Assembly (NCBI RefSeq): GCF_002571385.2
Contig: NW_019217946.1
Span: 495,133-559,132, forward strand
Source of the DNA: Stylophora pistillata
Lineage: Eukaryota
Direction of reading: 5' to 3'
Length of the DNA stretch: 64,000 nucleotides
Shown: positions 3,044-57,890 of the stretch, piece by piece
Position numbering within the stretch: the first letter of the stretch is position 1
Layout: each line of letters starts with the position of its first letter
Made by a program: the position numbers and the translations under genes
The notes under the pieces: generated by a model
What the model was told of the DNA's origin: nothing
Seen by the model: only the letters and a program-made list of their open reading frames with translations
Database searches by the model: none

Positions 3044-6000
3044 TCAAGAATTCCTGTGATTTATTGGCGAATAGGACATAAGGCGACACAGATTTTCTTC
3101 GCTTCCTTTTTTTCCGCTAAGGGTCTTCTTTGCAGTCTTTTTGATCTGTAAGAGAAGAATCATTTACTCCATGGCAAATAATGTAGAGGCACCATATGAT
3201 GGAACCAATTGACAGGACTGATATTGGAAAAGGAGGAATGGTGTTTAACTTATTCGGTTTCTCTTTTTTACTATTTCTCACTCGATAACTTTATGAAACC
3301 ATTTATTTTTTAGATATTCACTCGATAGAATTGCCAGTTCATTGACGTTTCTTAGTCCTCAAAAGCCAGCAAACAGACAGAAAAAATAGAAAGTTTTTGC
3401 CAGAATTTTCCCCAGTTGAGTTACAAAGTGAGCCAGAGTATATCGGATATAAATCGATCTGTCACAAGCAATTTCCCAAATTTTCCATAACCTCCCCTGA
3501 TAATTTGTTACGTTTGTACTCCCAGATACAGAGGGGTGTTGTGGGGGTAAAATGGTGAGACCGACTGGATCCTCTACCCGGACCATTAGAGAATTAATTT
3601 AACAGCTTACGGGACCTACTTTAGTAAAATACGTTCCAAACTTTTCATCCTCTCTCGTTGTTTCTGTCACTGGACTGGCAATCTGTTCACCTGGCCTGGC
3701 CTTAGGTTTGGACCTGGCGACTGGGTCTGTACATTGTCGTCTCAATTCCTATACAGCAGAGTAAAAAAATGTTCTGTTAAGAATGAATAAGGTCATGTCT
3801 TCAAGGCTGCCAAACGTCAAAAACGGCATGCAAACAAGGGTGGATCCGTAAATTTTTTGATAGGTAGGTCCAAAGTTTCATTCCGAAAATACAGTTTTTC
3901 CGCTAGAGCTTTAATGAGCAAGAGATATCTTAAGATAAGCGAAACTGAAATATTTAAACTTGATTGATAATACGCGATCCTATCGCTGGAAAAACTTTGA
4001 GAGGTGATTAAAATACCCAGAGGTCACGTGGGTAGCCCGCTGGATCCTCTTGACCGCTAATCTAAATCTGCTATTAGGTAAGTTCTCAAAGCGGCGAAGA
4101 CCAGAAAAGAAACAAAGGAACAAGCAGTTTTCAGATCAAACAAAGAGTGGATGGAAATAAATATGTAAAAGAATTTCATCTTAGGAGAGCTTTATTTCTC
4201 AACCTCAACGTTTTTTGGAGAGCAATTTGTTAACTTCATTCATAAGCTCAACATTTACCTTTTCCCAATGACATGTCTTTCCGGGGACTCCACATCCAAN
4301 NNNNNNNNNNNNNNNNNNNNNNNNNNNNNNNNNNNNNNNNNNNNNNNNNNNNNNNNNNNNNNNNNNNNNNNNNNNNNNNNNNNNNNNNNNNNNNNNNNNN
4401 NNNNNNNNNNNNNNNNNNNNNNNNNNNNNNNNNNNNNNNNNNNNNNNNNNNNNNNNNNNNNNNNNNNNNNNNNNNNNNNNNNNNNNNNNNNNNNNNNNNN
4501 NNNNNNNNNNNNNNNNNNNNNNNNNNCAATACAAATTTAAAAGCAAATTTTCATCCATACCGTTGAGAAAAGACCTCTCCACAGATTTTCCAACCTATTA
4601 ACCTGTCTCTGTCGGTTGGTCTGATAAAGTAGGAGTTTGCCAAACTCTTTTTTTTCTTCGTCGGTCATTTTATCTTGCGCCGTTGCCAAATCCTCAACTC
4701 GATGCACCGCGTCGTTGTGTTCCGCTCTGAGACCGTGATAAGCAAAGTCGTAAAACTCTCGTTTCACCTCCTCGCTGCATTTGCAAGTCTCTGCCACCAT
4801 GGAGAGGACTGCGCTGTAGAGCTCTTGTAGCCTTTTACTGATTGTTCCCAAGAGATCGAGCGTGACAGGAACTTTCAGTTTGTCTTCTTTTATTTCTGGC
4901 AATTCTAACACAGACGTTACATTTTTATAAAGGCGATCGTTGAGGTCTTTCAGCCTTTCGTTGATTTCACCCTCTTTGTCTGCTCTTTCTGGTTCAATGT
5001 AATTTGTGCTATCTTCTGATTCATCTTCCCGGTGTGAAATGTCAAAGTTCTGGGCTAAATTCTTCAAAAGTAAACAGAACGTTGCATGTCATCAGAAGGA
5101 AAAGTAGTGAGGTGAGTTACAATTTGCTCATAGCAGGATTAATGCGTAAATACTTAATTATAAGGCCGTGCGAGAACTCTGAAACAAGACGCACCGCTCG
5201 CCACACGCGTGACTATATTATTCTGTCGTTATCACCAGGAGTCTTTAGGTAATGACTAGTGGGTACTTATCTTTGTGCACGTGATTCGGGGATAAGCTAA
5301 AAAGCGCGCGATACTTGTGAATATGCTCTGGAAATTTCTTAAAAACTGAGGACATACCCAACGAAAAATTGCCAAAAGGCGAATCAAGAAAACATCTGCC
5401 TACCTGCTCTGGCCTGTCTCCTCTTATTCCAGCCAAGTCCTCTTTCGGCTTCGAACTTCTGGTCTTCCACTTTTGACACTGTTCTATAGTAGATGAAATC
5501 AAAAGAAACGTTTTCAGAATTAGGCTTTGCGAAAAACTTTTGGAGCATTGAGCAATTGTTTAAAGGTGTCAGGGAAATTCAGCCCAATTGTATTGGAAAT
5601 TATATATATGGCAAGGTATGTGTATGTCTAGAGAAGCAAGAACCAAAACAAAGCGTAAAATGTGGTTGCCAACCTCTTGAGAAGTGTCGTGAAGTTCTTG
5701 TTTCACTCTAGACAGCTCCTCTTCCAGTTGGTGAATTCTTGTACGTAATTTATTGCTCTGTTTCATCAAAAAGTACACAGGAAAATTTTATTTTAGGTTT
5801 TGTTTTTCCCACACGGAAAGAATTAGATAAAGTATCCATCGTTTGACAAGGGATAGTTTGTTACCATGCTTGTAGGAAACGCGAAAAGGGAAAAGGAATG
5901 AGGAAAAGGCCTTCACTGAATTCAGTTACCAACCTCTTCTAAACTGTCTTGAAGCTGTTTTGTCATACTCTGCTTTTCCTTTTCTAGCTCCTGCTTTCTC

Positions 6001-8278
6001 ATTTCCAGTTGATGACACTATTCATTTATGAATGTAAATCCGTTAAAAGTTACAAAGAGCTAATTCTGTTAAGAATAGGAAAAACTAAATTTTACTTCTC
6101 AAATCTCTCACCTCTTTTTTCAAATGTTTGCAGGTTTTCTCAATGACATCAATTCCATTCACCATCTGCAGTAAGATAACAAATCAAACTTTAAATTTTC
6201 TCAAGCTGATGACTCCTCTATACGCTAACCTCTTGCATAGTTTAAACTTTTTTCGGGAAGAACGTTTCAGTTCTTACAGAGGAAAAAACTCTGAAAATGC
6301 TCTTAGGAACATTTTAGCTCGTTTTGCTCCATATCCTTCAGCTTTTGACTTAAGGTCAAAGTCATCCATGCACACAGGAAAGATTCTTAGAGAGATATAA
6401 ACTAAGTCTTATCCTATTACACTTGTACTGCTAGAAGTTGATAATTTACCTGCTTTGAGTCGTTTGTTCCTGGTTCGACATCCTCTCCTGATAACAAGAG
6501 ATCTTAAAATAAAGTTGCATTGAGAATATTTTTCATTACCTACACTTTCATTTATAAGAAAAAAAACATATGTCATTCACTCTTTGTAAGACTTAAAAAC
6601 GGGTGAAGTGCCGCATAAAAAATAACTCAACAAAAGTTGACACAATAGTGGAAATCATCCCTAGTCCCTTACTAAAAGTACCATAGCTTAGAGTTATACA
6701 GAGAGCACGAGTTAATACGCGCTAAGAGGTTTTTGTTCAGCGTATTTCGTTCATTTGTCTTCGTTCGACTTAGAAATGAGTCTAGTATATCATTAAGAAT
6801 AAACTACCAATATTTAAAACGTGAAACGAGATCATCCCTAATCGCGAGTCAGCTTCCGAATACAAAGTAACATTTCGTACCCTGAAGTATTTCAGCCACT
6901 TTTTTAAGCCTTATTTTGGTTAGAGCATCAGCGAGCCTTTCAAGAGTAGCATCGTTTCCCTCCTGATTGATCCAGGCTACAATGACTGTGATGCAGCACT
7001 CATTGGTGACGCCCTTCTTGTCATTCTCAATCGTGCCAATAACAGCTTCTTGGAAATCTAGATGTCGTGCCATCTGTTTCCACTTGTCCCCAATCTTATC
7101 AGGCAATTGATGTTGGTGCATGACGTGGTCACTCATCAGTTTCCGGCTGCACTTAATGCTGGAACAACCTGCTAAAAGTACCGTAGCTTAGAGTAACACA
7201 GAGTACATGTTAATACGCGCTAACAGGTTTTGTTCAGCAAATTGGTTATAGTGAAAAAGTATGGAAGCGATAAAATTTTCCTGTATAAATAAAATCGCAC
7301 TCAAAGATGTTCTTGAGGATCAGTGATCGATGATCTGGTGCTAGTACGCCAGTAGGCTATTCACGTATTATTGACCGAGCGGGAGGTAAAGCTGGTCGGG
7401 CGCTAGCAAAGCTTTTGTTTGCGTCATCTTGGTAGACGAGGACTGAACCCTTTCAAACATCTGAATGGCCAGCACAAACTCTGACATGTTAATTTAGAAC
7501 AGTGTCCCCAATTACTTCTGCTGACCAAAATGATGTGAGGTATCTATTTTACTCGTTATTCAAATGAGCCGTGAATCATTGACATAATAAAGATGTAGGC
7601 TACGCTTTGTTTAACATCCTGATCCCCGAAAAAGTTTTTTTGTTTCTGCAGGATAGATAACACCACTTGTCTGCTAATTCTTAGGAAGAATTGAAAGATG
7701 ATACTGCTGGTAATACGTTTTAAAGCTACAATTGTCTTTGACGGACCAAATATGGGGGAGAAAGCAATTCGATGATACGATATGCCGCAAACGATAACGA
7801 TATACAGCGTAGAAAACTGTCAATTTTGCTGTCAGCGAACTGCATCTTAAGTAATTATATAGCTAAGAGACTCCGAATACGTGGAATGCCGGTTACGTAT
7901 ACTTTGAAGGGAATTGTCCCTTTGCCGTTCTTTATGCGGAAGTCAAGGGCAAAGGGGCAAAGTAGACTGAGCAACAACAAGGTTTTATACACGCACACGG
8001 AAACACTGAAGGAATATGATAAAATAGAAGATTGATCCGAAGAAAAAATATATTAACTGAACATTAAATACCTCACTCATATTTGATACATGCAATGCAC
8101 ATAATTAAAAAAAAAAATAACCAAAATTTTCAACTCTACTGCTACAATGTAATTTCGCTAAGAGAAATTATCTACCGGAAATTATTGCGGCAATATTGGA
8201 ACTTAGCTAAGATAGACCCTAACTAAATTCCGCTATGATGTACTTACCCATTTCTGAGGATTTAGAGATATTTTCCAT
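3044..8278 (-). CDS. Gene A1: death domain + coiled-coil + helical-bundle protein (~469 aa)
   Basis: Predicted exons: 8278-8248 (MENISKSSEM), 7168-6881 (death domain IGDKWKQMARHL...WINQEGNDATLERLADALTKIRLKKVAEIL), 6502-6450, 6165-6112, 6017-5934, 5757-5674, 5478-5404, 5061-4561 (helical domain), 3748-3611, 3145-3044 (TGA). All junctions are GT-AG with compatible phases and are conserved in A2/A3, except the A1-only 5478-5404 exon. One intron contains an N-gap. Confidence 0.8.
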
Positions 8279-15400: not shown

Positions 15401-18400
15401 GTATCCTTACCCTTGAGAAATGACCTCTGCACAGACTTTCTACCCTATCGACCTTTCTCTGTCGGTTGTTTTGAAGTTTTTGGAGTTTGCCAAACTCCTC
15501 TTTCTCTTTGTCGTTCATTTTTTCTGATGCCGCTGCCAAATCTTCAACTCGATGCACCAGATCGTTGTGTTCCGCTCGGAGACCGTGATATGCAAAGTCG
15601 TAAAACTCTCCTTTCACCTCCTCATTGGTGCATTTGCAAGTATCAGCCGCGATGGAGAGAACAGAGTTATACAACTCTTGTAGACTTACACTGAGTCTTG
15701 TTAAAACAATCAGTTTGTCTCTTGTTTCTTGCTCTTCCAACACAGACGTAACTTTACTACAAAGCAGCCTGTTGAAGTGTTTCACCTTTGCCGCGTCGAT
15801 TTCAACCCCTGTATTAGCCCGATTTGGTGCGAGATTATTTCTGGTATCTTCTAAATCAACCTCTCGGAGTGAATTATCGAAGTTCTCGGCAAAATTCTGC
15901 AAAAGTACACCAAAACTTCCTTTTTATCACGCGAAAAAGAAGAAAAGTGAGTGAAAAGTATTAAATAGTGGTATTAATGTCGGTAAAAATGAATTTGTTA
16001 GGTCGTGCAAGAACTTTTAAGAAGACGCATTGCTCGCCACAGATAACTATATTTTTTCCTTAGTACCTGGAGCGTATTAATTAAGTAATGAGTATTCGCG
16101 AAGAGCATAAAATTAGAGCATAAAATGCGGTAACCAACCTCTTGAGATGTGTCTTGACGTTCCTGCTTTAGTATGGACAGTTCTTTTCTCAATTCTTGAA
16201 TTAATCCGTGTAATTCCCGGCTCTGTTTCATCAAACAGTACAAAGTAAAATGTTCATTTCTTTTTTGTTTCCATGAAACTCAAGTACCAGATAATTAAAG
16301 TATCCGTCGTTTGGTATTTCCTTTTCCTTCGGTTTCTTTTGCTTTTGTAGCTCCTGCTTTATCACTTCCAATTGGTGGCACTATTCATTTGTGTATACAA
16401 ATGCTTTTCGTGTTAGTAATGACCATTTCTGCCATTAAGGAATAACTAATTTTTTTCATAGAATTCCTCACCTCTCTTCTTAATTGATCGTAATTTTTCT
16501 CTATTTTATTCATTCTGTTCTCCATCTGAAATAAGATAACAAATAAAACTTTGAATATTTCACCAGCCGATGACTCCTCTATGGGCTTACCTCTTGCAGA
16601 GTTCATCTTTTTTTAGAAGGAGCCATGGTTTCAGCTCTTACAATGGACAAAATCGAAGGAATCCCTTTTACGAATGGTTAAGCCCCTTTTGCTAAAAGTC
16701 CTTTGGACCTAAATTCGTAGTCATCCATTCATCCAAGAAAGATTCTTAGAGAGATGTAAGACCTTATCCTATAACACTTGTGCTGCTGGAAGTTTGATTA
16801 TTTACCTGCTTTGAGTCGTTTGTTCCTGTTCCGTCATCCTCTTCTGATAACAAGAGACCTTGAAATAAAGTTGTATGGAGAGTATCTTACATTACCTACA
16901 CTTTTATTTTATAAGATAAAAGACATAAGACAGTCACCCTTCGTAAAACTTAGAAAAGGGTGAAGCACTGCATTAAAAATAACTTTCAAAAATTTAACAC
17001 GTTAGAGGGAATCTTCCCTAATCCCCTGCTAAAAGGTACCATAGGCTTAAGGTTACACAGAGAGCATGTCAATATGTGCTAAGAGGTTTTGTTTAGCGTA
17101 TTTCGTTCGTTTGTCTTCGTTCGACTTAGAAATGAGTCTAATATATTATTACGAATAAATTACTAATGTTTAGAACGTAAAACGAGATCATCCCTATTTA
17201 CAAGTCAACTAGCGAGTACTGGAGTAGCATTACGTACCCTGAAGTATTTCAGCCACTTTCTTAAGCCCTATACTGGTTAGAGCATTAGCGAGCCTTTCAA
17301 CAGTAGCGTCCTTTCCCTCCTGATTGATCCAGGCTACAATGACTGCGATGCAGCATTCCTTGGTGTCGCCCTTGTCATTCTTAGTCGTGCCAATAAAAGC
17401 TTCTTTGAAATTTAGCTGTCGCGCCAGGTTTTTCCACCTCTCCCCAACCTCATCAGGCAATTGATGTTCGTGCATAATGCGCTCGCTCATCAGTTTCCGG
17501 CTGCACTTAATGCTAGAACAATCTGCTAAAAGTACCATAGCTTAGAGTTACACAGAGTACATATTAATACGCGCTAACAGGTTTTGTTCAGCAAATTGGT
17601 TATGGTGAAAAAGTATGGAAGCGATAAAATTGTCCTTGTGTAACTAAAAATCGAATACAAAGATGTTTTTGATGATCGATGATCTGCTGCTAGTAAGCCA
17701 GTAGTTTATTCAGGTATTATTGACCGAGCGTGAGGTAAAGTTGGTCGGGCACTTGCAAAGCTTTTGTTTGCGTCATCTTGGTAGACGAAGACCGAATCCT
17801 TTCAGACATCTGATTGGCTAGTTTGATCGAAATTGAGACAGATATAAAAGGAAATAAGTCCACTTTTCGCAAACTCTGACAAGTTAGTTGAGAGCAGAGC
17901 CCCTAATCACTTCTGCTGAACAAAAAGAAGTGAGGTATCTAGTTTACTCGTTAGTCAGATGAACCGTAAAGACGTTGGCGACGCTTTGTTTAGCATCCTC
18001 CTCCCTGAAAAAGTTGTTTTTGTCGCTGCAGAGCAGCCTCAGAATAGATAACACCACTCGTCTGCCAATTCTTAAGCAGATGATACTGTTGGTAATGCGT
18101 TTTTAAGCTACAATTGTCTTTGACGGACCAAATATGGCGGCGGGAGCAATTTGAAGATACGATATGCCGCGCGCGTTAAAGATTCACAACGTAGAAAACT
18201 GTCACTTTTGTTGTCAATGGACTGCATGTTGATTAATTATATCGGCTAAGAGACCTTACATGATGAGCAGGAAGTTTTCTTTCCGAATATGTGCGGTATG
18301 CCGGTTAAGTAGCCTTTGAAGGGAATTTTCTCTTTGCCGTTTTTTTTTATGCGGAAGTCAAGGGCAAGGGAGCAAAGTAGACTGAGCAACAACAAGGTTT

Positions 18401-22853: not shown

Positions 22854-25800
22854 TCAAGAATCCCTGTGACTTTTAGAAGAATAGGATATATGACAACACG
22901 TCTTTTCTTTGCTTTCCCTTTTTTTGAAAATAGTCTTCATCGTGGTCTTTTTGCAATTGAACTGCAAGAGAAGAATCATTTACATGGCATATTGGGTCAG
23001 TAAACGGGACTAATACTGGAAGAGAATGAATGGCGTTCAGCTTATTTGGGTTTTTTTCTTTACTATTTCTTATTTACAAGACTCTCGGATGTGATCGATT
23101 ATCATCACCCCAAGTTGCGCACTTATAGCATAAGCCGAGAAATAGTCTAATAGTGATATAAAAGCAAAATGGATGTTATAAAAAGGTTACCATGACAACA
23201 CGGTGAGGTTGAGGCAACAAAGGGGAGGAAAGATTGTTACGAACGCAGACGTCTGTGTCGACGTCTGTATTTCTTTTTTCAACCAAAACGAAAAAAAGTT
23301 CACTTGTGCGCTATCGAAAATTACTCGGCTTCTACTACAAACAAGTAATAGCATGACCTCTACGTGGTCAATAATACCCTCTCGTAATATCTCAAAATCT
23401 CCCAAATACCACTCATTGCTTCGCGGCTCGTGGTATCTTGGACAATTTTGAAATAACACTGGCAGTATTATTGTCAAATACCACTACAAGTCAGGCTATT
23501 TTCTATACTAATTCAAAATCTTACGGGACCTACCTTTGTGAAACACACTTCGAACTTTTCATCCTCGCTCATTGTTTCTGTTACTGGACTGGTGTTGTGT
23601 TCGCCTGGCCTGACCTGTTTGGGTTTGACGCCTGGGTCTGTACGTTTTCGTCTTAATAAGTCCTATGCAGCAGCAGCAGCAGAGTAGAAAAATATTCCGT
23701 TAGGAATGAATGAGGTCACGCCTACAGGGCTGTCAAACGTACAGAAATGTTTGCTAACTAGGGTGGATCCGTGAGTTTTTGATTGGTGGGACCAGACTTG
23801 GGACAAGTAATAAAAATACCCAGAGGTCAGGTGGGTGGTCTGGATGCCCTAGCCCGTACCCTGCATCCGCCACGGGAGAAGTTTTTAGTGCGACGAAGAC
23901 CAGAAAAAAAAAGGATCAAACAAAACAGAATCGAAGTGTCTTCAGATCAAACAAAGAAAGAATGGAAATATACATGAAACTAAATTTGAACTTACGAAAG
24001 CTTTATTTCAACCTCTACTTTTTTTGGAACAAATTTATTAACTTATTCATTAGTTTAGATTTACCTTATTACAATGACAAGTCGGACATGGTGCAGAATG
24101 GCAAGATGGAGGAAGACCTTCAGGCTGCAGTGCATAAAGACATAAGAAAGAAAAACTTAATATATGTCCTTGATGATATCTCTTGCTCGTTTTGTTTTTG
24201 TTATCAATTTATTAGTATCTCTCCGATGTTGATAATTTTCGATCAAAGCTCTCTACCAACATATTCAGCTTTGGTCTGTTAGGAAAATTAAAACGAAACT
24301 ATTGGATTATTAGACTGAAATATCGTTTGATTCTAGTGTCGATACGAAGCAAGTCCTTTAGTCATGAAACAAAATAGTGCAGATCAAAGGGTCTGTTCGA
24401 ATCTCTTTGAAAGCACTTCGGATCTCTTTTCTTTCCTGAAAATTCCACATGTATCAACATAGATTTAAAAGAATATTTTTCACTGAATCCGTGCAGGTAT
24501 TCTTACCGGCGAGAACAGACCTCTCCACAGATTTTCAAGTTTATCGACCTCTCTCTGTCGGTTGGTCTGAAGTTGTTGGAGTTTACCGAAATCCTTTTTC
24601 TCCTCGTCTGACATTTTTTCTCGTGCCGTTGCCAAATCCTCAACTCGGTGCACCAAATCGTTATGCTCCGCTCTGATACCGTGATACGCAAAATCATGAA
24701 ATTCTTGTTTCACCTTCTCACTGCATTTACAAGTCTCGGCTGCCATTGAGAGGACAGAGCTGTATAACTCTTGCAGACTTACACTGATTCTAAATAAAAG
24801 GTCTATTGTGACAGAAACTCTCAGCTTGTCTTCCTTTACTTCCGGCACTTGCAAAGGAGAAGTCACTTTTATATAGAGCTGTTCGTTGAGGTCTTTCAGC
24901 TTTTCATCAACTTCACGCTCAGCATCAGCTCTGGTATCTTCTGAATCATTCTCTCGGTGTGACACATCAAATTTGTACTCCAAATCCTGCAAAAGTTGAC
25001 AGAACCCTCTTTTCCATTAAAAAAGGAAGGAATGTGAGACATAAGTGATAAATAGCGTCTGTAAAAACTTGTCCATTCGGCTGACTGGGGTAAAACTATT
25101 AAAAAGACACACCGTTCGCCACAAGTGACTACTCCTTGTCCTTAGTAAGAACAATTCAGGTAAATAATGCTTTTGGCGGGCACTGATTGGCTGGTAAAGA
25201 GACAAAATCGCGCGTCAAGAATTCGATTTGTTTGATATCGATAGAAATAAACTAATTTGTTTGATTTCTGTGTGATATATACTAAAACAATTATTCATCT
25301 TAGTGTTGGTGAGAGTGGTAGGTATTTACTTCCCACTTTGGGGTGCCTAGCAAGGAAGGGGTGCGGGCACTTGTGTTATGCTAATGAGCTTCGAGCTACG
25401 CGCGACGGTTTAAGGGAACATGAACAAGAACAGATCAGAATATATGATTGCCAACCTCTTGAGCATTAGAAGTGTCTTGAAGTTTTTGTTTTACTATGGC
25501 CAGTTCCTCCTCCAGTTCCAGATTCCTTTGTGTTATACTCTCATTTTCCTTTTCTAGCTGCTGGATTCTGTCTTGCAACTGGTGGCGTTGTTAAGTGATA
25601 AAAATATAAATCCGTTTCAAGTTAGTAATAGATATCTCCGCTAAGAATCAGGAGAAATGCATTTTATCAATGAAAGAATTTCGTACCTCTATTTTTAAGA
25701 GTTCCCAGTTTTTCTCCATTTCATTTATTCTATTTTCTATCTGAAAAAAGATAACAAGAATGTCAAAATTTCTTAAGGCAGTGACTTACAGACTAAACCC

Positions 25801-28679
25801 TTACAAAGTTCAAACGTTTTTGGAAATAGCACTGTTTCAGCCCTAACAGTGGAAAAGAATTAAGGAGAAAACGCTTTTAATTAGTATCCTTTCAACATAG
25901 AGTTGGGTGATACGTTCAGGACAGACATCGAATAAATAGTAATGTCTCGTTAACCGCAATACGGCAAAGTTTGACTTACGCACAAATACGATCAAAGCAG
26001 TTTAAAGATAGTATTTGCTACACATGTAAATCCATATTTTCTTCCATCAAATTTAATGATTTAACCCACCTTTACTGCAACAGGAAAGTCGTCTCAAATG
26101 TGCAGCTTTGCTTAACATTTGCAATGGTATGTGAACATTGAGTAAATGCGGTATTTACCATCTTTACTTTGCGTGCAAATATAATGCAATCAAAAAAATT
26201 GCATCGGAGAAAATATGAACTAAGTCGATCAAATGTGGTATTTACTTCTTATTTACTATGATTTTGCTACGGTTGTAATTCAGTTTTTTCGGCGTGCAGT
26301 GAGTGCTCTTAGCCAGTAATTTATACCGAGCGCTTTATTTATATGGAGACCCTTTGTAAATAGCCCTTGTTTTGGTTGTACCATAATTATGTTGTAAATA
26401 ATTATTCAATTCAGCCTTTGGCTGAGACTTAGTTATTCCTATCGATTAAACTATCTATCTCGACTCATAAGGAGGTCTCAGGCCTTATCTTCAAACATAG
26501 ATTATTTTAAGCCGATTTTTGAGTATTTACTTGATCAGAGGCGTTTACTCCTGGTTCTTCCTTCACCGGTGAATACAAGGAATCTGAAAAATAACAGTGT
26601 ATTGGAAAAATCTTACAGGCACAGGTTTGTACTTTAGCCTTATAAAATGAAAGATATATATATATATAGTTCACCCCAATCGCTTGTCAACCATCGCTTT
26701 GAGTAGGGAGTAACATTACATACTGAGAAGTTTTTCCGCCACGGTCTTCAGCCCTATCTTTATTAGAGCTTCAGCAAGCCTTCCGACAGTAGCGTCCTCT
26801 CCCTCCTGATTAATCCACCTTACTATGACTGCGATGCAGCATTCATTAGTAGAAGAGCCACAGTCACTCTTGATGGTGCCAATGACAGCTTGTGTGAACT
26901 TCAGTTGTCGTGCCAATTCTCTCCAATTGTTTCCAATCAGTTGATGCAGTAGGTGATCATTCATGATGTCCTCTGTCATCCGAAGTTTCCGGCTGCATTT
27001 GCTGTTAGAACAAACTGCTAAAGATACCATAACTTAGAGTTATACAGAGCGCATGCAAAGACCCACTACTCGGAAAAGTAGTGATGAAGAAAACGTGCAG
27101 AAGTGACCATGATAGACAGACAAATGTTCTCGATGATCTACGAAGTGCTGCCAATGAGTCAGTAGCTTTTTCATGCGTTACTGATTGAGCGTGAGGTAAA
27201 GTTTCTTGGGTATAAGGGAAGGTTTTGTATCCGTTATCTTGGTAGACTAAAACCGAATCCGATTGGCTAGTTTAGCCAATAAAAGAGAAGTACATACTGT
27301 AGGAAATAAATCTCTGCGCAGACTTGTTGGTTACAAGCCGAGCCCCCGATCACTTTGTAGACCCAAAAGATATGAGTTATCTCATGTAGTGGTCGTCCAA
27401 ACGGGAAAATAAAACCCTAGACAAAATCACAATATTAGCATTGGCATCTAGCAACCTTAACCCAGAGCAACGTTACAATGGATGAAACTCCTCTTCTATT
27501 AATTTTTAGGCAGGTTTGAATAATGACATTGCTGGCAATGTCTATTAAGCCACGATTGCCTTTGATGATCCAAGTATGGAGGCCATTCAATTATTGTAAC
27601 AGTTAGCCGTAAGCTGCAGGAATAATAAGGCTTCTTGGTCAAAAACCAATGAGGATGTTTATAAAACGATAAGTCTTGCGCGTGAAAGGTTATTGATGTA
27701 AAAAACTGCCAATTTTGTCAGCTGTGAACTACATCTTAAGCCGTACTTAAGACGCCTTGTAAGATATGCATATTTAATCCCTCCATTGGACGGGAATTTT
27801 CCCTCTACCCGACAGTTGTCGGAATGTTATGTAACACTATGTAGAAATTGAGAGTAAGGGGCAAAGTAGATTCGCAACGGAGTCATGCGCAATCAACAGA
27901 TGATTGAAATATGCACACGCGGAAACGAAACTGGGAGATCAAATTGAAATTAAAGGGAATGCTGGTTCACCGAGTTTAAGATATTTTAGTCATATGAGTT
28001 TAAGATATTTTAGTCTGTCATGAACGAAGAATTTAAGTTAGTAGCTAAGTACTGCGCTACAAACAAATTATCTATGAACTTTTCAAAGACAAATTACATC
28101 CTAGTCTCATCCTCAAGATTAAGTGGAAGTATAAATGTAAATAACATTAAGATCCAAAGCCAAATAAAATACTTGGGTGTCTATGTTGATCAACACTTAC
28201 ACTGTGGACCTCAGATTAAACATATTAACAATAAATTAGCAAAAAATATCGGAATTATTACTAAATTGAGACACTATATAAATCTGCATACTCTGAAACA
28301 ATTGTATTACTCTTTCATCTATCCCTATTTGACCTATGCTATCACTAGTTGGGGAAGTGCTTGCAAAACTAGACTAAATAAAATCAGAACTAAGCAAAAT
28401 AAATGCATTCGTTCAATTTTTTTTGCACACAGTAGAGAGAATGCTACGCCTTATTATAATTTATTGGATATCCTAACAATTGATAATTTTTTCAAACTAC
28501 GGAGTGCATACATTTGAGAAAAACTTAAACTCTCAACGCCAATGCTGGCACGCAATTTCAGTGTAAGAAATGCATTCACACGGAAATTAAACAATATCGG
28601 AACTCGGCTTAAATAAAAACTCTAGAAATTCCGTCTTGAAGTACTTACCCATATCTGAGGATTTAGTGATGTTATCCAT
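22854..28679 (-). CDS. Gene A3: death domain + coiled-coil + helical-bundle protein (~425 aa)
   Basis: Predicted exons: 28679-28649, 27014-26724 (death domain IGNNWRELARQL...ATVGRLAEALIKIGLKTVAEKLL), 26583-26531, 25740-25687, 25578-25456 (acceptor uncertain), 24986-24507, 23662-23525, 22961-22854 (TGA at the same position as in A1/A2). Confidence 0.8.
23075..23512. mobile_element. Fold-back (hairpin) interspersed element in the last intron of A3
   Basis: Absent from A1/A2. Internal inverted arms aataatac..tctcaaaat..aaataccac / gtggtatc..attttgaaa..gtattatt surround GCTTCGC. Confidence 0.55.
28016..28500 (+). mobile_element. Internal fragment of a CR1/L2-group LINE reverse transcriptase in intron 1 of A3
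   Basis: ORF 28020-28517 (NKLSMNFSKT..IKYLGVYVDQHL..LYYSFIYPYLTYAITSWG) is the RT thumb region. Absent from the homologous A0 intron. Confidence 0.85.
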
Positions 28680-35454: not shown

Positions 35455-38400
35455 TTACCTCTCCTTGTTAAACCTCTTGCACGTCTTCATCAATGTCATG
35501 CGTTGAAATAGCAGTGGCTCTGATATGACCATTATGTCGTCCACGCCTGAACATTCATTCATACTTTGATGTCTGTTCTTTAGATCGGTTTTAGTTCGCT
35601 AAAACACAAATAAGTTATTAATTATAAAGCGTGAGAGGGATTGTATTTACATTTAACTGTTGACTTGTCAGGTCTTTAGGCTATCAAGACCGGAATATAA
35701 CACTCGGGAAACACGAGAAGTTAAGAGCCGTCTGTACAATACACAATATCCGTTCAAAAGAAACTGAAGCTTACTGATCAGATATAACATGCAATAGAAA
35801 ATTAAAAAGCTGGGTTTAACCCCAAGATAGAGTAACGCAGTACATTCAAATTGAGTCACTAACTCGGTAAAGTTGTTCGCCTAGAAAGAAGGAAATGACT
35901 ATTGAAAATACCTGACTTCTTTCCAATTTCCACTGAGATTGCTTTCTTTCTACATTTCCCTGATAAAGCAGATCTGAAAGTAGCTTTTCGACTTCTTCAA
36001 CACGTTGTTTTTGTTCCCTTCTCCACTTTTCTAGTTGTTCAAGTCGAGCAATTTGATTCTTATTGAAACGATGGATTTGATTGTGTGCCGATTCAATTCG
36101 GGAGAAAAATGTGCTTTCTCGGTCCTTCAATTCCATTGTTAACTCCAAGAGAGGATGAATACACTTCGAATTGTCTTTCATCATCTCACCAGCAACCACA
36201 CAAATCAGCTTGATGAGAGAAACAGTTATTCCTTCACAAGAACTGCACTGTTCTTCACAAAAGCGTAACCATTCATCGACAGAGGAATGGTTGCTATTTG
36301 GTTTTGTGTCATCTCTATCTTGGCCACTTTGAACTTTATCACTTGATTCTTCGTTGCCGCTATCTATTTTTACTTTTTTCAGTTGCCGCCTTAGTTCTTG
36401 AACCCCTGATCTCGTCCTGACAAGGCTATTTTGGCGTAAAAATGATGTTTGTTCTGTTTCCATGGCAACTCCTTGAGTGGACACAGCAACAGCCTTTAAA
36501 AGAAAATCTCTTTGTCAAGCAATTGATTGGCGCAGGTCAGTAGCCTAATTCTTGACAAAAAAAATGAGGAGTTGAGCGCATCCTCTCTTTTTTGTGAGTC
36601 ACATCTATGAGTAAAACAGGGGAGGGTTTCCTGGACTCGTTACAAAGATAAGTAGTCTAAGTGAAAACTTAAAATCTCGTATAATTGGACCTTACTGAGG
36701 AACTTGACCGGCTTTTGACGATTCCAAAAAGAACACCTGATCATTTTGCAGCCTATTTTAGACTGTGGTTTCACCAGGCTTATTTAGAAGGACTCGCAAA
36801 CACGCGGTTTCTTCACAGACGAAAGTTATTTTAAAACAAAAATGAGCTCACAATGATTCTGCAAAAAATATGCTAATTTCGTGTAATTTGTAGGGTTTTT
36901 TTTTCCCAACGGCGTTAAATATCATACTTTGTTGCCTTTAAATCTTGGTTGGTGCTCACTTTTTGTATTAGGTTTTAAGAGCTATCCTTAGATTACTGGG
37001 CAATAAAAATACCTCGTCAAAATCCGAACTTCGGAACTCTTCCCTTTTGCTCAGAGGTTTCACCACGTATAAATTTCCTTGTGTATCTTTGCATAGAATC
37101 GGCTGCAGTGAAACGATAATGTCCAAATCAGCATCCTATTAGCAGAAGAGACTAAGAATTCTGTATGAACTGAATATAAGGCGTCGTAAGACTGAAAAAT
37201 TCTACCATCAATTTTTAAGTTTGAAAGCATTTTTGCAATGAAACATTTATTCTTTGTAATATTAAGCTACAAACCTTGTTGTTACGATTTGAATCCAACA
37301 CTGTTAAACTGATAACATCGCCCTCGTCAACAATCGGTTTTTTGGACAGATTTTCATGACACATTTCTTAAAAAAAATGTTGAGAAGGAAAACCAAAGAA
37401 GTGAACTATTTAGGAGGTTTTGGCATTATTCTCCGTCAAGTGATCCTAACTGGTACTTAAGGGAATGCCAATATTTTTTTAAACTCGCGATTTTATTGGG
37501 GGGAGGGGAGGGGAAATGCACATAAATACCCCTTCACCGTAAGTAAACATTTAAGAATGCCTTAATGCCTCAAAAATGCAGCAGCACATATTACGATCAG
37601 AAAGACAGTGATAATTGAGCTGACCAGAATAGCGAAAAGAGCTTCGAAGTAGAAGACTCTGAGCCAGCTGACTTCAAAGGAGAAAAAAAAATATATGAGA
37701 AAACTAACTCTAAGGGTATAGAGACTCAATCAAAAACTCGAGCTAACCAGGAGTTCTACTTCATGAGTTGTGATGGCTACCATAGCTTATTCCACATACG
37801 TCAGCCACTCACCAAGCAGTCTTTCCGCGATATTTTTTCTTCCTATACTCCCTAAAGCATCCGAAAGAAGTCCTGCTGTTGCACCCTTTCCGTTTTTCTG
37901 TTTCCACGCAATAAGAAGGGAGTTTGCTTTGTCCCAGTTACATCTGCAATCTTCGTCCAGGTTCTGGACTTTTGATGAAGGAATTCCTAGTTTTGGTGCT
38001 AACTCGCGCCAAAAATTTCCGACGTCTTCACTGATATTTGAAAGTTGTAGTTCTGTTACTAAAGACCTCCTTTGATCAATAGTTTTTGCTGTGTATCGTA
38101 AACAATACAAGGTTTAAAAGAATAAACGTGAAGAGTGAGTAATTGATAAAAGAACTTCTTATGGTATTCAGGGTAACGCCTCGAATATTCGGGGTAAAGC
38201 CTCGAATAAAATCATCACTGAGCTTCGTTTGAAACTGAGTGCTGTAATAAGGGTGGACCTGTTCAGTTTCTGCATAGGTTATCCCTTTACACCCTAACAT
38301 TAACATGCATATTCTTCATGCTGTTCTCCATGCATTTCCCAGGATGCTTATAGGGAGAATTTCTTTAACAGTCAAGAGCTTCTTTTGATAATGATCATTT

Positions 38401-41218
38401 CCTTTATTCTCCTCACCTTAATGTTTGATTCAGGAGTGATATTATAAGGGGAAATTAGATGCTTGCTGCTCTTTGGGGGTTAAAGGGTTAAAAGTCACCA
38501 GCTTTTTCTTATTTCACATTGGCCTCTTAACACAGCAAGTGTACATATATCATCAAGCACTTGCTATTTCGAATTTTTCATTTTACTTTCCGGTGAGGAG
38601 TAACCATATGTGCGTTAAAAACTCTGGAACTCCACTTGAAAGCCAGTTGGTGAAGCGTCCAAAAGGTTTTGGTGAAGTACGAGTTCTTTTTACGTCGAGG
38701 AAGGTAGATCAATATCATTAATAGCCTGATTTCGAATTTTTCATTTTACTTTCCGGTGAGGAGTAACCAGATGTACGTTAAAAACTCTGGAACTCCACTT
38801 TATAGCCAGTTGGTGAAGCGTCCAAAACGTATTGGTGAAGTTCGAGTTCCTTTTACGTCGAGGAAGGTAGATCAACGTCATTAAAAGCCTGAGCAGTCTA
38901 TATTTTTGTGTGTGCTTTGGAGCGTTAAAGGGACACTGTCAGGGGTTGACAAGCGCAGTAGCATTCACTCTCTCCGAGACTTGTCACGCTCGACCGCCAT
39001 TATGTAAATATCGGTGAGTTGAAGAATTCTGCATATATTTTGCATTTAAATCAAGTTTATCCAAAGCAAATGCTCAGGAAAGTGAATTTCTTTTACTGAG
39101 GAACCTTTTGTGATCTTTTGTAAATGTAAAAGTGCTTGTACAACGAAGCGCAAAGAAAATAGTTCTCGTGGGTGCCCGTACAAAGGGAGAAACGTGCTGT
39201 GTACAGATGAATGTAAATATGGAACAAGCAATAAACCTTGCAGAAACGGGGTATGAATATAAATTTCAATACATGCATATAAAGTTGTATACATTCACTT
39301 CTTTTGTGGCTTGAAGGTCCAAAAAGCGTACGAAATAATTTGTGTATTCCCTTTCTTCAGGATTCGAACGAGCAGTCGTCATCTGCCTATACTTATGAAA
39401 GCCGTAGAGTTCGCCTGAGGCTTACCTGCATTCCATTTATAATGTGTAGTAGAATAAACATCTGCCTTGCAATTGCTACAAATGTCTGTGATATCTGGCA
39501 TTATTTTATTTTCGTATCAGTAAAATCGCTGTCACTAAAAAACTCAACCTGCATCAAATTTTGCCTGCAGCCACAACTTAAATGTCTTTTGTTCCACATA
39601 AATACGCTTATAGTTTCTCAGCCACGCTTTCTTGTATTCCCCTCTGTCTTCAACCTTTCGTTTCCGCCCTGAGTTGATGCGTTTACCGCCATGTCCGCAT
39701 CCTCCGCTAGACGCCATTTTGAATTTGTGAATGCAACTTTAAAAAGTCAGGATGACTTTTTCAAGTTTCGATCAGCTACACGAGCATGTGCAGACCATGA
39801 CCGTGTCCCTTTAAACTGCCAAAGTGTTAAAATTTGTATAAATTCTCAAATGTCTTCCTCTCCGCTTCCCTTTTCATTAAATGACAAAAATGAATGTTTT
39901 GTTTGCAGTTTCGGCCGTCCCTACACAAGGATGTCACCCATCAGGTTCTAGTGCTGTTGAGAAAACTTGACAACTTAAGAGGCAACTGAACTGTTCACGC
40001 AAAGTCAAAATTTAGAAGTCAATGATGATATCACAAAAAAATTCAAAGAATGTTAAACGTGAAGTGTCCGGCAAATATTGCAAAGCTCTTATTTGAGACT
40101 GAAATTGGATTGCAGAATATTACATCGCGAGGAAACAACACGAGAACAAGAATTCTAATCTTATTTAGATCCTTCATGATCTGACTGAGGCTAAAATATT
40201 CGATTCCACGTATATTGCATTATCTTCATTTCATGCATCACATATTTTTTACTTCAATCGACTGTGCTCCCATTCACAAAGCATTTTCGAAAGATTTCAA
40301 GGTAAAAAGAACAGCAATATCTTCATACTTCATGCCACTAACAAACGAACATTCATGATTAAGTCGGTAAGGATATGACTCAGCGTCCAAACTTGTCCGT
40401 TGACTTAAAATATCACCCCAGACTGATGAATAAAGATGAACCACTCAATATTTCAAAATATCAACCAAATTGACAAACGTCCTTAGATATACTCAAAATA
40501 CCGAAAGGGTCGTACTTTACGAACAATATGGAAAAAGCTGATAAGAAGTTTGCATCATCAGACTTAGTTTACTGTACATTAAACGTCTGACTCTTAAACA
40601 GTTAAATTACTGGCGAGTGCTTGTTATATTGTGTCATCAAACTGACAACAGACTTCAACAACTAACAAGGAGATTTCAAAAAGTTTCAAAAGGGTTTATC
40701 GTGCAGAAATAGGGGGTGTTTTGATTCTAAAGGTCCTCGGGCAAATAACTATTTAGTTAGAAATCGAAATTGTTAGGAATTGAAATTTCTGAGCGGTATT
40801 AAGCAGGGATAGGTATTCAAGCACTCATTGTTATTGTGAGATGTTTTGATTATTATTGGCACGAACAACTAAATATTTATTATTTTATATTAGGAAACTT
40901 ACTTCTCATTTCAACACATTGGTCAGATTCGCGTTCGTTCAACTTTGTTTCCCTGGTGTCCAAGGAACCATTTTCTCCGTCATGGGCTTCTGTTTTTTGT
41001 CTCGGAAGCGAAGTTCTGCCGTCCTCTCGTGAATCAGTGTCATTGTTCAAGAGAGTTGCACCATCGAGTTTGGGAGCATGTCCAAGCTCGTCCTCGGTGC
41101 TGATTGTACAAATTGCTTCTTCTATTTGACTATCATCTTCCGACCGGGCATAAATGAATATTTCTTCAGGTGCTACGTTTGTCTTCCCGTTCCTTTCGTA
41201 AACCACCGTAAACCACAT
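35455..41218 (-). CDS. Gene B1: acidic N-terminal region + death domain + beta-rich linker + helical-bundle protein (~500 aa)
   Basis: Predicted exons: 41218-40903 (ends GAA ATG AGA A|gtaagt), 38088-37813 (death domain VGNFWRELAPKLGI...WKQKNGKGATAGLLSDALGSIGRKNIAERLL), 37366-37275, 37102-37013, 36493-35912, 35598-35455 (TAA). Phases are compatible. The start codon and the last exon are less certain. Confidence 0.7.
38279..38491. mobile_element. piggyBac-like MITE (~210 bp)
   Basis: Termini ttatccctttacacc ... gggttaaagggttaa (CCCTTT/AAAGGG with TTAA-like flanks). Confidence 0.65.
38566..38891. repeat. ~163-bp tandem duplication in a B1 intron
   Basis: atttcgaatttttcattttactttccggtgaggag...aaggtagatcaa..cattaa.agcctg occurs twice with few mismatches. 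Confidence 0.9.
38929..39810 (-). mobile_element. Kolobok-type non-autonomous DNA transposon with a residual ORF
   Basis: TTAA on both sides (38925-38928, 39811-39814) and TIR agggacactgtca / tgaccgtgtccct. Minus-strand remnant ORF from ~39717: MASSGGCGHGGKRINSGRKRK...RIYVEQKTFKLWLQAK. Confidence 0.7.
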
Positions 41219-41755
41219 CAGGTGAGTTTAAATGTTAGTGGTTTCTTAACGAGTTAAAGATATTTAACCTCAACCTAGAGGCAGCTAACGCGCAGCATAG
41301 TAATTTAACTTCCTTCCTGTGAGGGGGTTTGATCGAATCCCTTCAATGCAATGAATAAGGGAGTTGTATATCTTTATAACTTGATCTGGTTAGAGACAGA
41401 TCTTACTGAAAGTAACAACTAATCAAGATCCTGACCGGAAAAGGCCCCTTCACGCTGTGAACCGTCCGACTATAACTAATCCCTGTCAACCAATTACCCT
41501 TCAGTACTTTTTAAAACTTCCCCCTTTGACGTGTACAAGTGCAATGTCAATTAATTTTCAAACGTCTCTCAAACTGATTGTTATCATGTTAAGGAGCAAA
41601 TATCATATAGAATAGCACAATTTTGTATCCCCAGACCACTTCTAAGATCACCTTTCGTATTATTTTGTTCAGGAAATCATGATGAAATGGATAATTATAC
41701 CAAAACATGTTGATTAGTGTTTTATAGCATACCTATCTCTTTCATGTAAACAATA

Positions 41756-45889: not shown

Positions 45890-48800
45890 GGTAACAAGGT
45901 AATTTGGTAATACCAACTAAGATGAAATTGTAAATTGGCCACCGTAATGAGTTAAAAAGCTGACGTTTCGAGCTTTAGCCCTAAAGTAACTGTTTCGTGA
46001 TTTTCCTCCACTGAGTTTTTTAAAATTCAATTACAAATTGCATTTAATATTAAGTAATTAAAGTGACAAAATGTTAGTCCATTGAAATTACCAGCCTCTG
46101 TTTATCACTCAGCCTTCTCTCCATTTTCCCTTGATAAAGCAGTCCTGACAGAAGCTTTTCAACTTCCTTGAATTGCACCTCATGTTGCGTTTTCCATTTT
46201 TGTAATTCTTCAATTCGATCCCCGTGTTTCTCGTCCGAGAGTTGGTTTTGAGTACATACCAATTCGATTTTCAAGAAAAGTGCTATTTCTTCTCGCAGGA
46301 GTTCCTTAGTATATTCCAAAAGTTGTTGAATACATTTTACATTATCTTCACTTTGTTGCGCAACCTCGGCAGTCACTTTGATGAGACCTTCAAACATCTT
46401 CTGAAAAAAGTTGCGATGTTCTTCACATGTTTGTAGCAATTTATCCACGCTTTCATCGTTTGATGGATCCACCTCTTAATTTAATGAGCTGCTTAATGGC
46501 TCTATTTTTTTCTTGGAGGTATCTTGAGTCCCATTTGCTGTATCAACATTTCCACAAGCCAGTTGCCCTTCCTTCATCTGGAACCTCAGGTCCTGAAGCT
46601 CTGATGAAATATAACGCTTTAGGCTTTCCTGTCTCGCCACAACAACAGTTTCTAAGAATCTTTTGCTTATAATTGTCTGTCAAAACAATTGAAATGAAAC
46701 TGGGTGAGACACTTAATCCAAAATATAACATCATTTTCGAGGACGTACCCCGAATCACAGAGTGAATTTTTTCTAAACATCCTAATTGGATTAAAGGGAT
46801 AANNNNNNNNNNNAGCACCGGATTTGATAATCAACTTTTGTAAAAGTCAAGGTCAGCAACTGCGACTCTCTGCTCATTGACCAAACCTTAAAATCTAGAC
46901 TTTATAGAGCTTTTCCTCTGAGCCATTCGCTCGCGGAAGTGAACTCTTCACCTTTAAACACCTCCATATCAGTGGAAAACACTTGTTTTCCACTAGAAAG
47001 AGTTGACACTTCGAATTCCCGTTCTAATGTCCTACCTAAGCCAGGCAAAGTTCAAATTCCCCACCTCAATCAGAAAAAAGGAAATAATGATCTCAGAGCC
47101 AAGTAAAAACAAGTAAACCTCCCGAGGCATTAGAAAACGCAAGTAAATACGTCACGACTCGTAGGTTGGCTTTAAGTTTTCAATTTGATGGGGTAAGTGA
47201 GTGATGCTTGTTTCCTGGGCCAACCAGAGATGAAAGGATGCTCAATTGAAAGGTTGCGCCTATCAATTGCCCTATCAAAACCTTATAAGCGTAAAGTGAT
47301 AACTGATAAGCGCTCCCTCATTAATCGGTAGTACTAGTTGCTTAGAGATGAGTTAAATATTTTATATTCGCACGTGATATCAAGAAATGTAGCAGCCTCC
47401 GCCAGACGCTCAAGGGAGGAGGATTTTGGAAGAAATATCCCAATCCGACAAGGAAACCACGAAAATCTCCACAATTGCGTAATACGCCAACAATGTCATT
47501 GTTTTCTAAGACTTCGTCGTGAAGTGATTCATCCAGCTCTACATTGAAAACATTTTAGCAACTATCTACACAGAACACTCACCCATATATAAAAGATACC
47601 TACTCACCGAGCAGCTTCTCTGCGATGCATTTTTTTCCAATGCTTTCTAAAGCATCCGCCAGACGCCCTGCCACTGCACTTCGCCCTTCTTTCTGTTTCC
47701 ACATGAGGAGGAGATTGTTCGCTTTGTCGCGACTACAGCGATAATCGTCGTCCAGGTTTTGGATCTTTGCTGCAGAGATATCAAGCTTTGGTCCCAACTC
47801 ACGCCAGCAAGTACCCACGTCATCACTTATGTCTGAAAGCTGCAGTTCTGATACCACAGACGCCCACGGGTCGATAACGTTTGCTGTGTGCGGCACAAAG
47901 GGTTATTAGATTCTTACCATATGTTGATGTTTTAGTGGCATGTAATTTAAACATTGGATTGCATGAGGTTTTACAGTCTTCTTGCCCTGGAGTAAAAAAA
48001 CTTACCGGGTTTTAATTGGACAATAATAACTTATAGGGGTTAAAATTCTGTTTAGTACTTCAGTTTGATATTTAATTCTAAACTGCCAGACACGTAAGTG
48101 AGAGGTTATGCCTGAGTTACGATGCATTAGGACTTGGTTAGTAATTTATGCATTGAAATTAATTTTAAGTCTTCTTTGCATCGTCACACCACTCAACTAT
48201 TAATTCATTTCAAAATTGCTGTTACTGAAAAAATTAGACTAAGTTATTCAATTTAGATATTTCTGATTATTGTAGCAGCCTCATCAATATTATTTATGTC
48301 AACGTTTTTTTTCATACATCTTTAATTGTTCTCTGAATATTGCTTAAGATCTTTCAAACGTCACGTATCTCCTTAGTTATATTTATAACAAGATCTCGCA
48401 AGTGCCATAGTCAACCACCGAAGCTTGACACAATATGCAGCAAACATAATGGCTATGTCGCAACGTCATTCGGCAAAAATACACCCTAATTTAACTCACT
48501 TTTTCCAAAATCCCCGGATGAAGCCTTCAAAAAACGACCGAAAATCTTTCGTTCACTATAAAAGCAAAAAGTTTACTTTATGACAATAGCGGCTTCATAG
48601 CGACAGGTACAATTTTAATTTCCTGTTTGTAGTTCGTCGAAAACATCATGCCAAAACTCTCATATGTCTGTCTAATACATAATCATAATATTGGAGTTTC
48701 TGCTTTGCAGGCAATCGAAGGGTTACCAGAAAACATAAGTCAGCTTTCTATTTATTCACACGAAGTTGGAATCAACAAATTTGAAAACATTCTGAGCCGG

Positions 48801-50779: not shown

Positions 50780-51210
50780 CAGTTGAGCTTAATAACTGTT
50801 GGTGGTTTCTTATGGAGTTCAGGGTATTCATCCTCAAATTAAAGGCAGCAAACGTGCAACATATTAATTTAATTTCCTCACTCTGAGGAGATTTTGATCG
50901 AACCACTTCAATGCAAGAAAGAAGGGAGTTATATATCTTTAAGACACGATCTGATTACAAACAGATCTTACTTTTCCTATCGGAAAAGGCTCTTCACACG
51001 GAGATATTCCGTTAGACGGCCATAACTAGTCCCAGTCAGCCAATCATCATTCAGTACTTTTTCAAACATTTTACTATCAACATTTTTAAGTGCACTTGAA
51101 TGTCATTTTACCTTTAATTTACGTCTCTCAAACATCATATAGCGGCACGGCGAAATTTTGAATTCAGAAGAATTCTAAGATCGCCTTTGGTATTATTTTT
51201 CTTATTATTT

Positions 51211-54401: not shown

Positions 54402-54489
54402 TTCCTTTAAGAATAGTATTATCCTAACACAAAAGCTAAGCTTTATATGAATTCCGTACGTACGGTTGCCTACCAGAGTTGAATGTTTA

Positions 54490-56474: not shown

Positions 56475-57890
56475 AAACCTGGGTCTATCTCCCCGCTCTA
56501 AACCAACTGTTTCCTGATTTTCCGCCACTGAGTTTTTCAAAATTGAGTTACAAATTGTACTTAGTATTAAGTGATTAACGCGACAAAATGTTAGTCCATT
56601 GAAATTACCGGCCTCTCTTTATTACCCAGCCCTCTCTCCATTTTCCATTCAGCATTCAGCAGTCCTGACAGAAGCTTTTCAACTTCCTTGAATTGCACCT
56701 CATGTTGCGTTTTCCATTTTTGTAATTCTTCAGTTCGATCCGCGTGCTTCTCGTCTGAGAGTTGGTTATGAGTACAAGTCGATTCAATTTTCGAGAAAAG
56801 TGCTTTTTCTTCTTGCCGGAGTTCCTTAGCATAGTCCAAAAGCTGTTGAATACAATTTACGTCATCTTCATTTTGTTGCGCAACTTCGGCAGTCATTTTG
56901 ATAAGAGCTTCAAACATCTTCTGAAAAAAGTTGCGATGTTCTTCACATGTTTGTAGCAATTCTTCCACGCTTTCATCGTTTGGTGGACCCACCTCCTCAT
57001 TAAATGAACTGCTTGTCGGCTCTATGTTTTCCTTGGAGGCATCTTGAGTCCTATTTGCTGTACCAACATTTCCACAAGCCGCCAGTAGCCCTTTCTTCAT
57101 TTGAAACCTCAGGTCCTGAAGTTCTGATGATATATATCGCTTTAGGCTTTCCTGTCTCGCCACAACAGTTTCTAAGAATCTTTTGCCTATATTTGTCTGT
57201 CAAATAAAATAAAATTGGGTGAACACTTAATAAAAAAGATAGCATCATTTTCGAGGACGTACACCGAAACACAGGGTGAATTTTCTTCCAAACATCCTAA
57301 TTGGATGGATTAAAGGGATAAGTGAAAAAATTACCTCTTCCAGATTCAAAAGTTTGTCACTGCTGTTGAATGGTTTTACCGTGTATTTATTTCCCTGCGC
57401 ATCTACGCACACCATATGCTAAAGAAATGACAAAAAGTTGAGTGTTAACAAACCTGGACTAATTTGATAAAAATGTTCGTTAAACAAAGATAAGTTTCAT
57501 ATTTGATTAGTAAAGAGTAAGCGATAGTGGAGAATGGTGAAAATCCAAGAGAATGGATGAAATTCGTATTCTGCAAATCCGTGTGAGAGACATCTCTGTT
57601 CTATACTCGGTCTAGGTTTCATCCCGTTCAGTTCACGAGTCGTAATCACTTGAAAAGTGAAAGTTATTAGCTTTGGAGGGGTCACGGGCAGACATACTAA
57701 TCATCAGTTTTGGAGGAAACGGATTATAACTACGTTGTATCAAAGAATGCATGTGGCTATTGTAAAAATTGTATCTTTCAGTAGTTATGGTAGAACACGT
57801 GTTGTTAACTACTAACCTTATCAAGCCCTGCACCCAACTCATGTATAACTGTCAAACTGATAACATGGCCCTTGGGTACATCATCCACTC
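54702..57890 (-). CDS. Gene B3 (partial, 3' part): linker and helical-bundle exons; death-domain exon not in the window
   Basis: Exons: 57890-57817 (GVDDVPKGHVISLTVIHELGAGLDK), 57418-57335 (HMVCVDAQGNKYTVKPF...), 57196-56609 (open, highly similar to B2), and a duplicated small exon at 55958-55902 and 54752-54702. Upstream sequence runs into transposons from ~58.4 kb. Confidence 0.7.
55621..55744. mobile_element. Inverted (palindromic) Penelope-type terminus with degenerate hammerhead motifs
   Basis: Near-perfect palindrome containing ttgaagatggcataagcatgccgacgGAAAcatatc. It lies in an insertion flanked by an aaaagca(g/a)ttttc duplication and present in only one of the two tandem copies. Confidence 0.65.

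Follow-up and report, generated by a model that had tools for sequence, protein, structure and literature searches.

A predicted helical bundle shared by two subfamilies of coral Death domain genes

We examined a 64,000-nucleotide stretch of the Stylophora pistillata genome (contig NW_019217946.1; the window, in whose numbering positions are given) that carries six tandem genes, A1-A3 and B1-B3, arranged head to tail on the minus strand. Each gene encodes a Death domain (DD) followed by one large phase-0 exon, and sequence comparisons indicate that the helical bundles encoded by the large exons of the A and B subfamilies very probably share ancestry. The shared domain is apparently new, within a known kind of protein. 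A sequence-only reading of the window had proposed such a shared, undescribed helical domain, and this proposal was supported by a bridging protein and by control scores that place the similarity above chance.

The DD exon lies inside the window for five of the six genes, that of B3 being outside it, and all five passed Pfam PF00531 (52-61 bits against a cut-off of 22.6). The large exons span 480-588 nt, and each gene has one copy of the bundle. The window proteins are identical to S. pistillata RefSeq/GenBank models. A proteins consist of a DD, a coiled coil, an acidic linker, the helical domain and a basic tail, which in A3 is a basic Ser/Thr tail, while B proteins run from an acidic N-terminus through a DD, a short conserved segment and the helical domain to a basic tail. 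RNA contigs supported every one of the seven A3 introns and five A2 introns, and the B1 introns were seen in four runs. The large exons had been described as phase 0, which was borne out at both ends: RNA joints show it for A2, and joints together with the frame for A3 and B1; all six have AG/GT ends and a length divisible by three.

The peptides on which the proposal was built were located on the minus strand at 24776, 24701, 24653 and 24530 in A3 and at 56926, 56842 and 56671 in B3, with the A motif also present in A1 (4740) and A2 (15590). As the reading had noted, there is no A-B similarity at the DNA level: self-BLASTN (E<=1e-5) joined A exons to A exons and B exons to B exons, never A to B. 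Searches of the genome matched at least 21 A-type and at least 7 B-type exons, several with stops; these counts are lower bounds and include partial duplicates. A and B genes adjoin on contigs C163, C13 and C3.

A bridging protein links the A and B domains

Homology of the two domains was settled, to a very high degree of confidence, by a bridging sequence, P0093, a 172-aa ENA protein. A 17-sequence B profile searched against 1.84 billion representative proteins gave 42 matches at E<=0.001, of which 40 were B-type and none was an A protein; P0093 was recovered at E=8.7e-4, and the remaining match, P0092, was a repetitive false positive. P0093 is a member of neither the A profile, on which it scored 68.3 bits, nor the deeper B profile, on which it scored 50.8; reversed, it scored 2.8 and 1.6. 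In 2000 shuffles, the maxima on the A and B profiles were 24.2 and 22.5 with 7-residue blocks and 33.0 and 33.2 with 14-residue blocks. Each half of P0093 scored on both profiles, and hhalign joined it over the whole domain to A (97.8%) and to B (88.1%). Used as a single query against the 398-Mb genome, it gave 24 matches at E<=10 (29 candidates), comprising 18 A, 5 B and 1 other. In a tree of 65 domains, built after 24 of 88 rows were left out as near-duplicate or partial, P0093 fell between the A and B clades, each supported at 100/99. A metagenome scan with P0093 returned a sole match, a bacterial false positive.

Cross-profile scores pointed the same way. The B profile gave a median of 17.2 bits on 42 A domains (1.5-32.3), and the A profile a median of 10.2 bits on 46 B domains (1.7-26.2, the best from Nematostella), although these are not independent trials because the sequences are related. 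Among controls on the B and A profiles, reversed sequences reached at most 5.1 and 3.7, 118 spectrin-locus windows taken from this genome 9.7 and 9.8, and 20 A-protein coiled coils 9.0 and 9.5; shuffling in 28-residue blocks, so that helices stay whole, gave up to 30.6 and 21.6. Similarity no better than that between coiled coils would have spoken against a shared domain; the median cross-profile scores lay above the best spectrin and coiled-coil scores.

Two lines of evidence are weaker. Head-to-head similarity is weak: BLASTP of A against B exons gave 28% over 87 aa (E=0.001), and hhalign gave probabilities of 5.4% and 8.8% with small profiles and 26.7% (P=0.0007 over 93 columns) once the profiles comprised 42 A and 46 B sequences, so that the profile-profile check suggested by the sequence-only reading (5-27%) is indecisive when taken alone. 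In single-sequence hhalign, the best of 41 spectrin windows was beaten by 24 of 46 B but only 5 of 42 A domains. These low probabilities, the partial overlap with spectrin controls and the missing DNA similarity would fit an alignment of unrelated amphipathic helices by their heptad pattern alone. Such convergence is nevertheless largely refuted, and we consider it extremely improbable, given P0093, the retrieval of both exon sets across the genome, cross-profile scores that exceed those of controls, the equal phase of the exons, the linkage of A and B genes and shared tail motifs.

The tail motifs, which were picked after inspection of the sequences, comprise S[ED]P in 16/22 A and 10/18 B tails (shuffle expectation 2.3 and 1.3) and, ~15-20 residues further on, a basic-Thr-acidic motif in 13/22 A and 7/18 B tails (3.1 and 1.1). 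We take them to resemble basophilic kinase and 14-3-3 sites. A C-termini carry a polybasic stretch and a Cys-containing hydrophobic motif, and B C-termini an Ile-Ser-x-Pro-x-Cys motif followed by basic residues; by likeness, these could be lipid-anchor or binding motifs.

Predicted fold and conservation

AlphaFold models of the A3 and B3 bundles consist of four amphipathic helices of ~30 residues, ~135 aa in all, with an extra disordered insert of 25-40 aa between the first two helices of B. A four-helix fold is predicted with high confidence. The helical domain of the sequence-only reading held, while its extent of three helices and ~105 aa did not, since the models add a fourth, N-terminal helix. 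Its A-B register (A3 L58 with B3 F85, and F145 with L174, model numbering) matched the multiple alignment and several structural alignments, and the two models aligned to PDB chains that they have in common, several in the register predicted from the sequence alignment. The terminal motif L.GL[FL] fits two of the six copies as written and four of six as L..GL[FL]; it lies near the exon end in A (2 codons from the donor), whereas in B it is 16-18 codons away. The domain was also said to be among the best-conserved parts of A, which agrees with identities across nine A proteins (helix 3, 78%; helices 2-4, 68%; DD, 47%). In nine B proteins the DD is better conserved (66%) than helices 2-4 (51-52%).

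No Pfam family passed its cut-off on the bundle, and neither model matched anything in Foldseek at E<=0.001. Neither the A profile nor the combined one retrieved a natural relative from the PDB sequences (best E=0.096; a designed protein, E=0.0015), the ESM Atlas held nothing usable for P0001 residues 200-340 or P0067, and PADLOC matches were sparse and weak. The closest fold, though a generic one, is the STAT coiled-coil domain (PF01017; PDB 6nuq, 7ubt and 1yvl), with four helices in the same order. The bundle differs from it in having shorter helices and 7-15% identity, and the proteins have no DNA-binding or SH2 domain. Neither of the two weak PF01017 matches in the genome fell at family loci, and full-length proteins contained no STAT domains; the STAT coiled coil is a structural analogue only. 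BAG and spectrin folds, suggested in the sequence-only reading, proved to resemble helices 2-4 alone, and their profiles gave no match. Unlike spectrin repeats, BAG and syntaxin Habc, the bundle has an added first helix and occurs in single copy, and it matched none of their profiles; family loci accounted for 0/85 genome matches of the spectrin profile PF00435 and 0/4 of the BAG profile PF02179, with no BAG match to the window exons at E<=1.

Range, selection and Death domain exchange

B-type proteins were found in Pocillopora, Montipora, Acropora and Nematostella vectensis, and A-type proteins in Pocillopora, Desmophyllum, Oculina and Montipora, the latter by a word-index search that does not bound the range. 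A tree of 33 DD rows, with one locus left out, resolved two clades (100/100). B-type DDs sit on A bodies in L013 (L013:3005-6941) and Desmophyllum P0012, and A-type DDs on B bodies in Acropora P0070 and P0110, showing that DD exons were exchanged both ways between A and B bodies in different coral lineages. The uninterrupted frames of P0016 and P0110 on short Logan contigs suggest that they are spliced transcripts. Median dN/dS in A was 0.27 for the bundle (15 pairs) and 0.42 for the DD (10 pairs); in B it was 0.23 for helices 2-4 and 0.12 for the DD (6 pairs each). The family is under purifying selection and has expanded in tandem.

The B segment between DD and bundle is ~40-60 aa long and rich in beta-type residues (37013-37366 and 57300-57888 on the minus strand; P0036 residues 253-290). 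It is kept from Nematostella to corals at 54% identity with no Pfam match, and it appears to be a second undescribed small module. Two A-type exons (L002:2796-4232 and L006:1436-2989) carry a ~300-aa Glu/Thr-rich repeat insertion before the bundle. At L012/L031 (P0013, LOC111331832), the RefSeq model has no DD and joins an A bundle to an upstream region that we take to look like IPT/TIG plus ankyrin repeats, with no Pfam match; the join could be a genuine fusion or the result of merging two gene models. At L009:4298-9366 (G000:C870), two degenerate kinase frames lie upstream of an 816-bp copy of an A bundle exon (97% identical). No DD exon turned up in 20 kb of sequence at this locus, and the copy is probably a duplicated fragment.

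Candidate roles of the bundle proteins

The DDs most resemble those of RIPK1, THOC1, ankyrin, FADD and PIDD, and no enzyme domain was found in 19 proteins scanned. We favour, with moderate confidence, a joint reading in which one family of sea anemones and corals split long ago into the paralogous branches A and B, its members being hexacorallian, non-enzymatic DD adaptors with a new docking domain for cell-death or immune signalling, and not killers that pierce membranes. The DD would be recruited to a platform of the TNFR/FADD/RIPK1/PIDD type, while a partner acting downstream or in regulation would bind the bundle, taken to be soluble, in A possibly through the conserved polar face of helix 3 (Y84, D85, Y88, H89, R92, H95 and R101). 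Basophilic phospho-sites in the tail may exert control, and DD exon exchange would rewire the input with the output unchanged. A homodimer of the A3 bundle, predicted without an alignment, scored 0.16 against a mark of 0.32, which speaks neither for nor against dimerisation. As in FADD, TRADD, RAIDD and PIDD (PF00531), a DD is joined to a second non-catalytic module; here, however, the second module is an all-helical bundle that matches nothing in Pfam rather than a DED, CARD, TIR or TRADD-N domain, the DD is N-terminal, and A adds a coiled coil, B the beta-type-rich segment and both a basic tail. PMC8195603 describes expanded cnidarian proteins combining Death-like and TRADD-N domains, which resemble the present family in lineage-specific expansion and variable architecture in a sessile marine animal.

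The same anatomy would also suit a decoy or brake. Such proteins would cap DD platforms and pass no signal on, with the bundle as a spacer, stabiliser or inhibitor-recruiting module and expansion widening the range of platforms damped. The lack of a catalytic domain, the DD swaps and the faster divergence of the A DD relative to the bundle (dN/dS 0.42 vs 0.27; identity 47% vs 68%), as if targets changed under a constant output, are consistent with this, but the pattern suits a positive adaptor equally, the DD is the more constrained part in B (dN/dS 0.12), and the data do not give the sign of the effect; we consider a decoy rather unlikely. Still less likely, in our view, is a non-immune scaffold that serves as a linker in the cytoskeleton, in trafficking or in the nucleus, its DD being ankyrin/THOC1-like and its bundle spectrin/syntaxin-like. 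Ankyrin and THOC1 DDs score as well as RIPK1 and FADD, and both spectrin repeats and closed syntaxin are among the fold matches. However, the bundle is single rather than repeated and has no spectrin profile match, and tandem birth-and-death expansion, broken copies and domain swaps follow the pattern reported for immune-signalling families of corals (PMC10236652, PMC8195603).

In a further reading the proteins are executioners. The bundle would be a permuted, internal relative or analogue of the MLKL/HeLo bundle, opened by DD clustering so that its amphipathic helices damage membranes, and we hold this to be improbable; in the implied permuted arrangement, helices 1-3 would equal HeLo helices 2-4. 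The bundle resembles MLKL 4HB, HeLo, SesA and RPW8 domains in its four amphipathic helices and death-signalling context, and it has sub-threshold SesA matches. Among the 25 of 62 families listed, SesA (PF17107) was the most frequent weak Pfam match, in 4/47 members at E<=0.1 (best E=1.2e-4, 22.6 bits against a cut-off of 26.3; PUB10_N, 1/47). These matches fell at the same place in A and B members (SesA ~17-90 on helices 1-2), and A exons were the top two of five genome matches to the SesA profile; the third and fourth were transposon-type coiled coils, not HeLo domains. We dropped the missing hydrophobic stretch as a counter-argument because MLKL's own bundle lacks one too (PMC7705454). Position argues otherwise: the bundle, with its ~30-residue helices, is internal behind the DD, beginning near residues 200 (A3) and 180 (B3), whereas HeLo, MLKL and RPW8 need a free N-terminal helix, and MLKL also acts through a basic cluster (PMC9815663, PMC7705454). 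The bundle is mostly acidic (median net charge -4 in 42 A and -5.5 in 46 B domains, up to +9 in A). Moreover, the SesA matches were below cut-off, covered half the profile and came mostly from one A clade, and spectrin controls (29 windows) gave off-target matches just as strong, at E 4e-5 to 1e-4, RPW8 and Rx_N included, so that the SesA matches are at noise level; SesA was not among the control matches listed. The MLKL_N profile matched nothing in the genome, which is uninformative because controls gave nothing either; PigL_N gave one unrelated match. MLKL, HET-S and RPW8 structures were absent from the best 50 of each of four structure-match lists. The suggested MLKL/HeLo-like fold gained neither profile nor structure support; of the proposed effector or interaction function, interaction fits best, while the effector part fails on domain position and is improbable.

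Other features of the locus

Table 1. Positions of the A and B gene features in the window, with supporting evidence.
Feature	Position	Strand	Evidence
A1 large exon, four-helix bundle	4561..5061	-	splice sites predicted from AG/GT; Logan protein P0005, 96% match
A1 DD exon, A-type DD	6879..7175	-	PF00531 E=3e-14
A2 large exon, bundle; short deletion at helix 2 start; end LCRGHF	15411..15896	-	RNA joints
A2 DD exon	17236..17538	-	PF00531 E=8e-16
A3 complete coding region, 437 aa in 8 exons, identical to RefSeq LOC111330979	22857..27030	-	seven RNA-contig introns; translation identical to P0001
A3 large phase-0/phase-0 exon	24507..24986	-	RNA joints, frame; model pLDDT 85.8
A3 predicted helices	24944-24849, 24824-24729, 24719-24630, 24608-24516	-	AlphaFold
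A3 DD exon	26724..27030	-	PF00531 E=1e-16
B1 large phase-0/phase-0 exon, bundle	35912..36493	-	RNA joints in 4/4 runs
B1 DD exon, B-type DD	37813..38088	-	PF00531 E=8e-14; RNA joints
B1 upstream acidic exon, spliced to DD exon	40903..41221	-	joint 38088-40903 in 4/4 RNA runs
B2 large exon, bundle; insert between helices 1 and 2 has an in-frame TAA in this assembly	46092..46676	-	AG/GT ends
B2 DD exon	47609..47884	-	PF00531 E=2e-14
B3 large exon	56609..57196	-	AG/GT ends; model pLDDT 72.4
B3 predicted helices	57157-57074, 56968-56879, 56860-56759, 56743-56639	-	AlphaFold
B3 DD exon	L018:3039-3341, ~3 kb past window end		

The in-frame TAA of B2 (46476-46478, minus strand) is either an allele or an assembly error; the frame stays open in Logan protein P0028, which shares 94% identity with the exon. 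B2 and B3 are products of a recent duplication, with 77-88% DNA identity, introns included, between 44118-47063 and 51762-58352 and between 40576-41574 and 50140-51133. A frameshifted copy of the acidic first exon of B1 lies upstream of B2, and two B1 acceptors 33 nt apart (37102 and 37135, minus strand) were used in different RNA runs. A reverse-transcriptase frame (PF00078; 31057-32814, plus strand) lies between A3 and B1, and a DDE_Tnp_4 transposase (60180-61463, plus strand) inside the long B3 intron. GenBank model P0026 merges a fragment at 42600-43578 (minus strand; precomputed PF20700) into B3-B2.

Implications for coral cell-death signalling

No description of the family was found in the full-text literature searched, mostly non-subscription, and the supplements of PMC8195603 and PMC10236652 may list the genes. 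The domain family, which Pfam, PDB and this literature do not show, extends from Nematostella to reef corals, with at least 28 exon copies in Stylophora, and dozens of proteins annotated as 'Death domain-containing' or 'myosin-like' gain a second definable domain. Should the bundle do no more than dock partners, the result is a specialist but solid addition; if it kills cells, it would be a new executioner, and anemones and corals would have a one-protein necroptosis-like pathway whose input is retargeted by DD exon swaps. The two-way swaps would provide natural constructs with which the DD, as input, could be told apart from the bundle, as output, in the signalling of coral cell death, a subject relevant to bleaching and disease.
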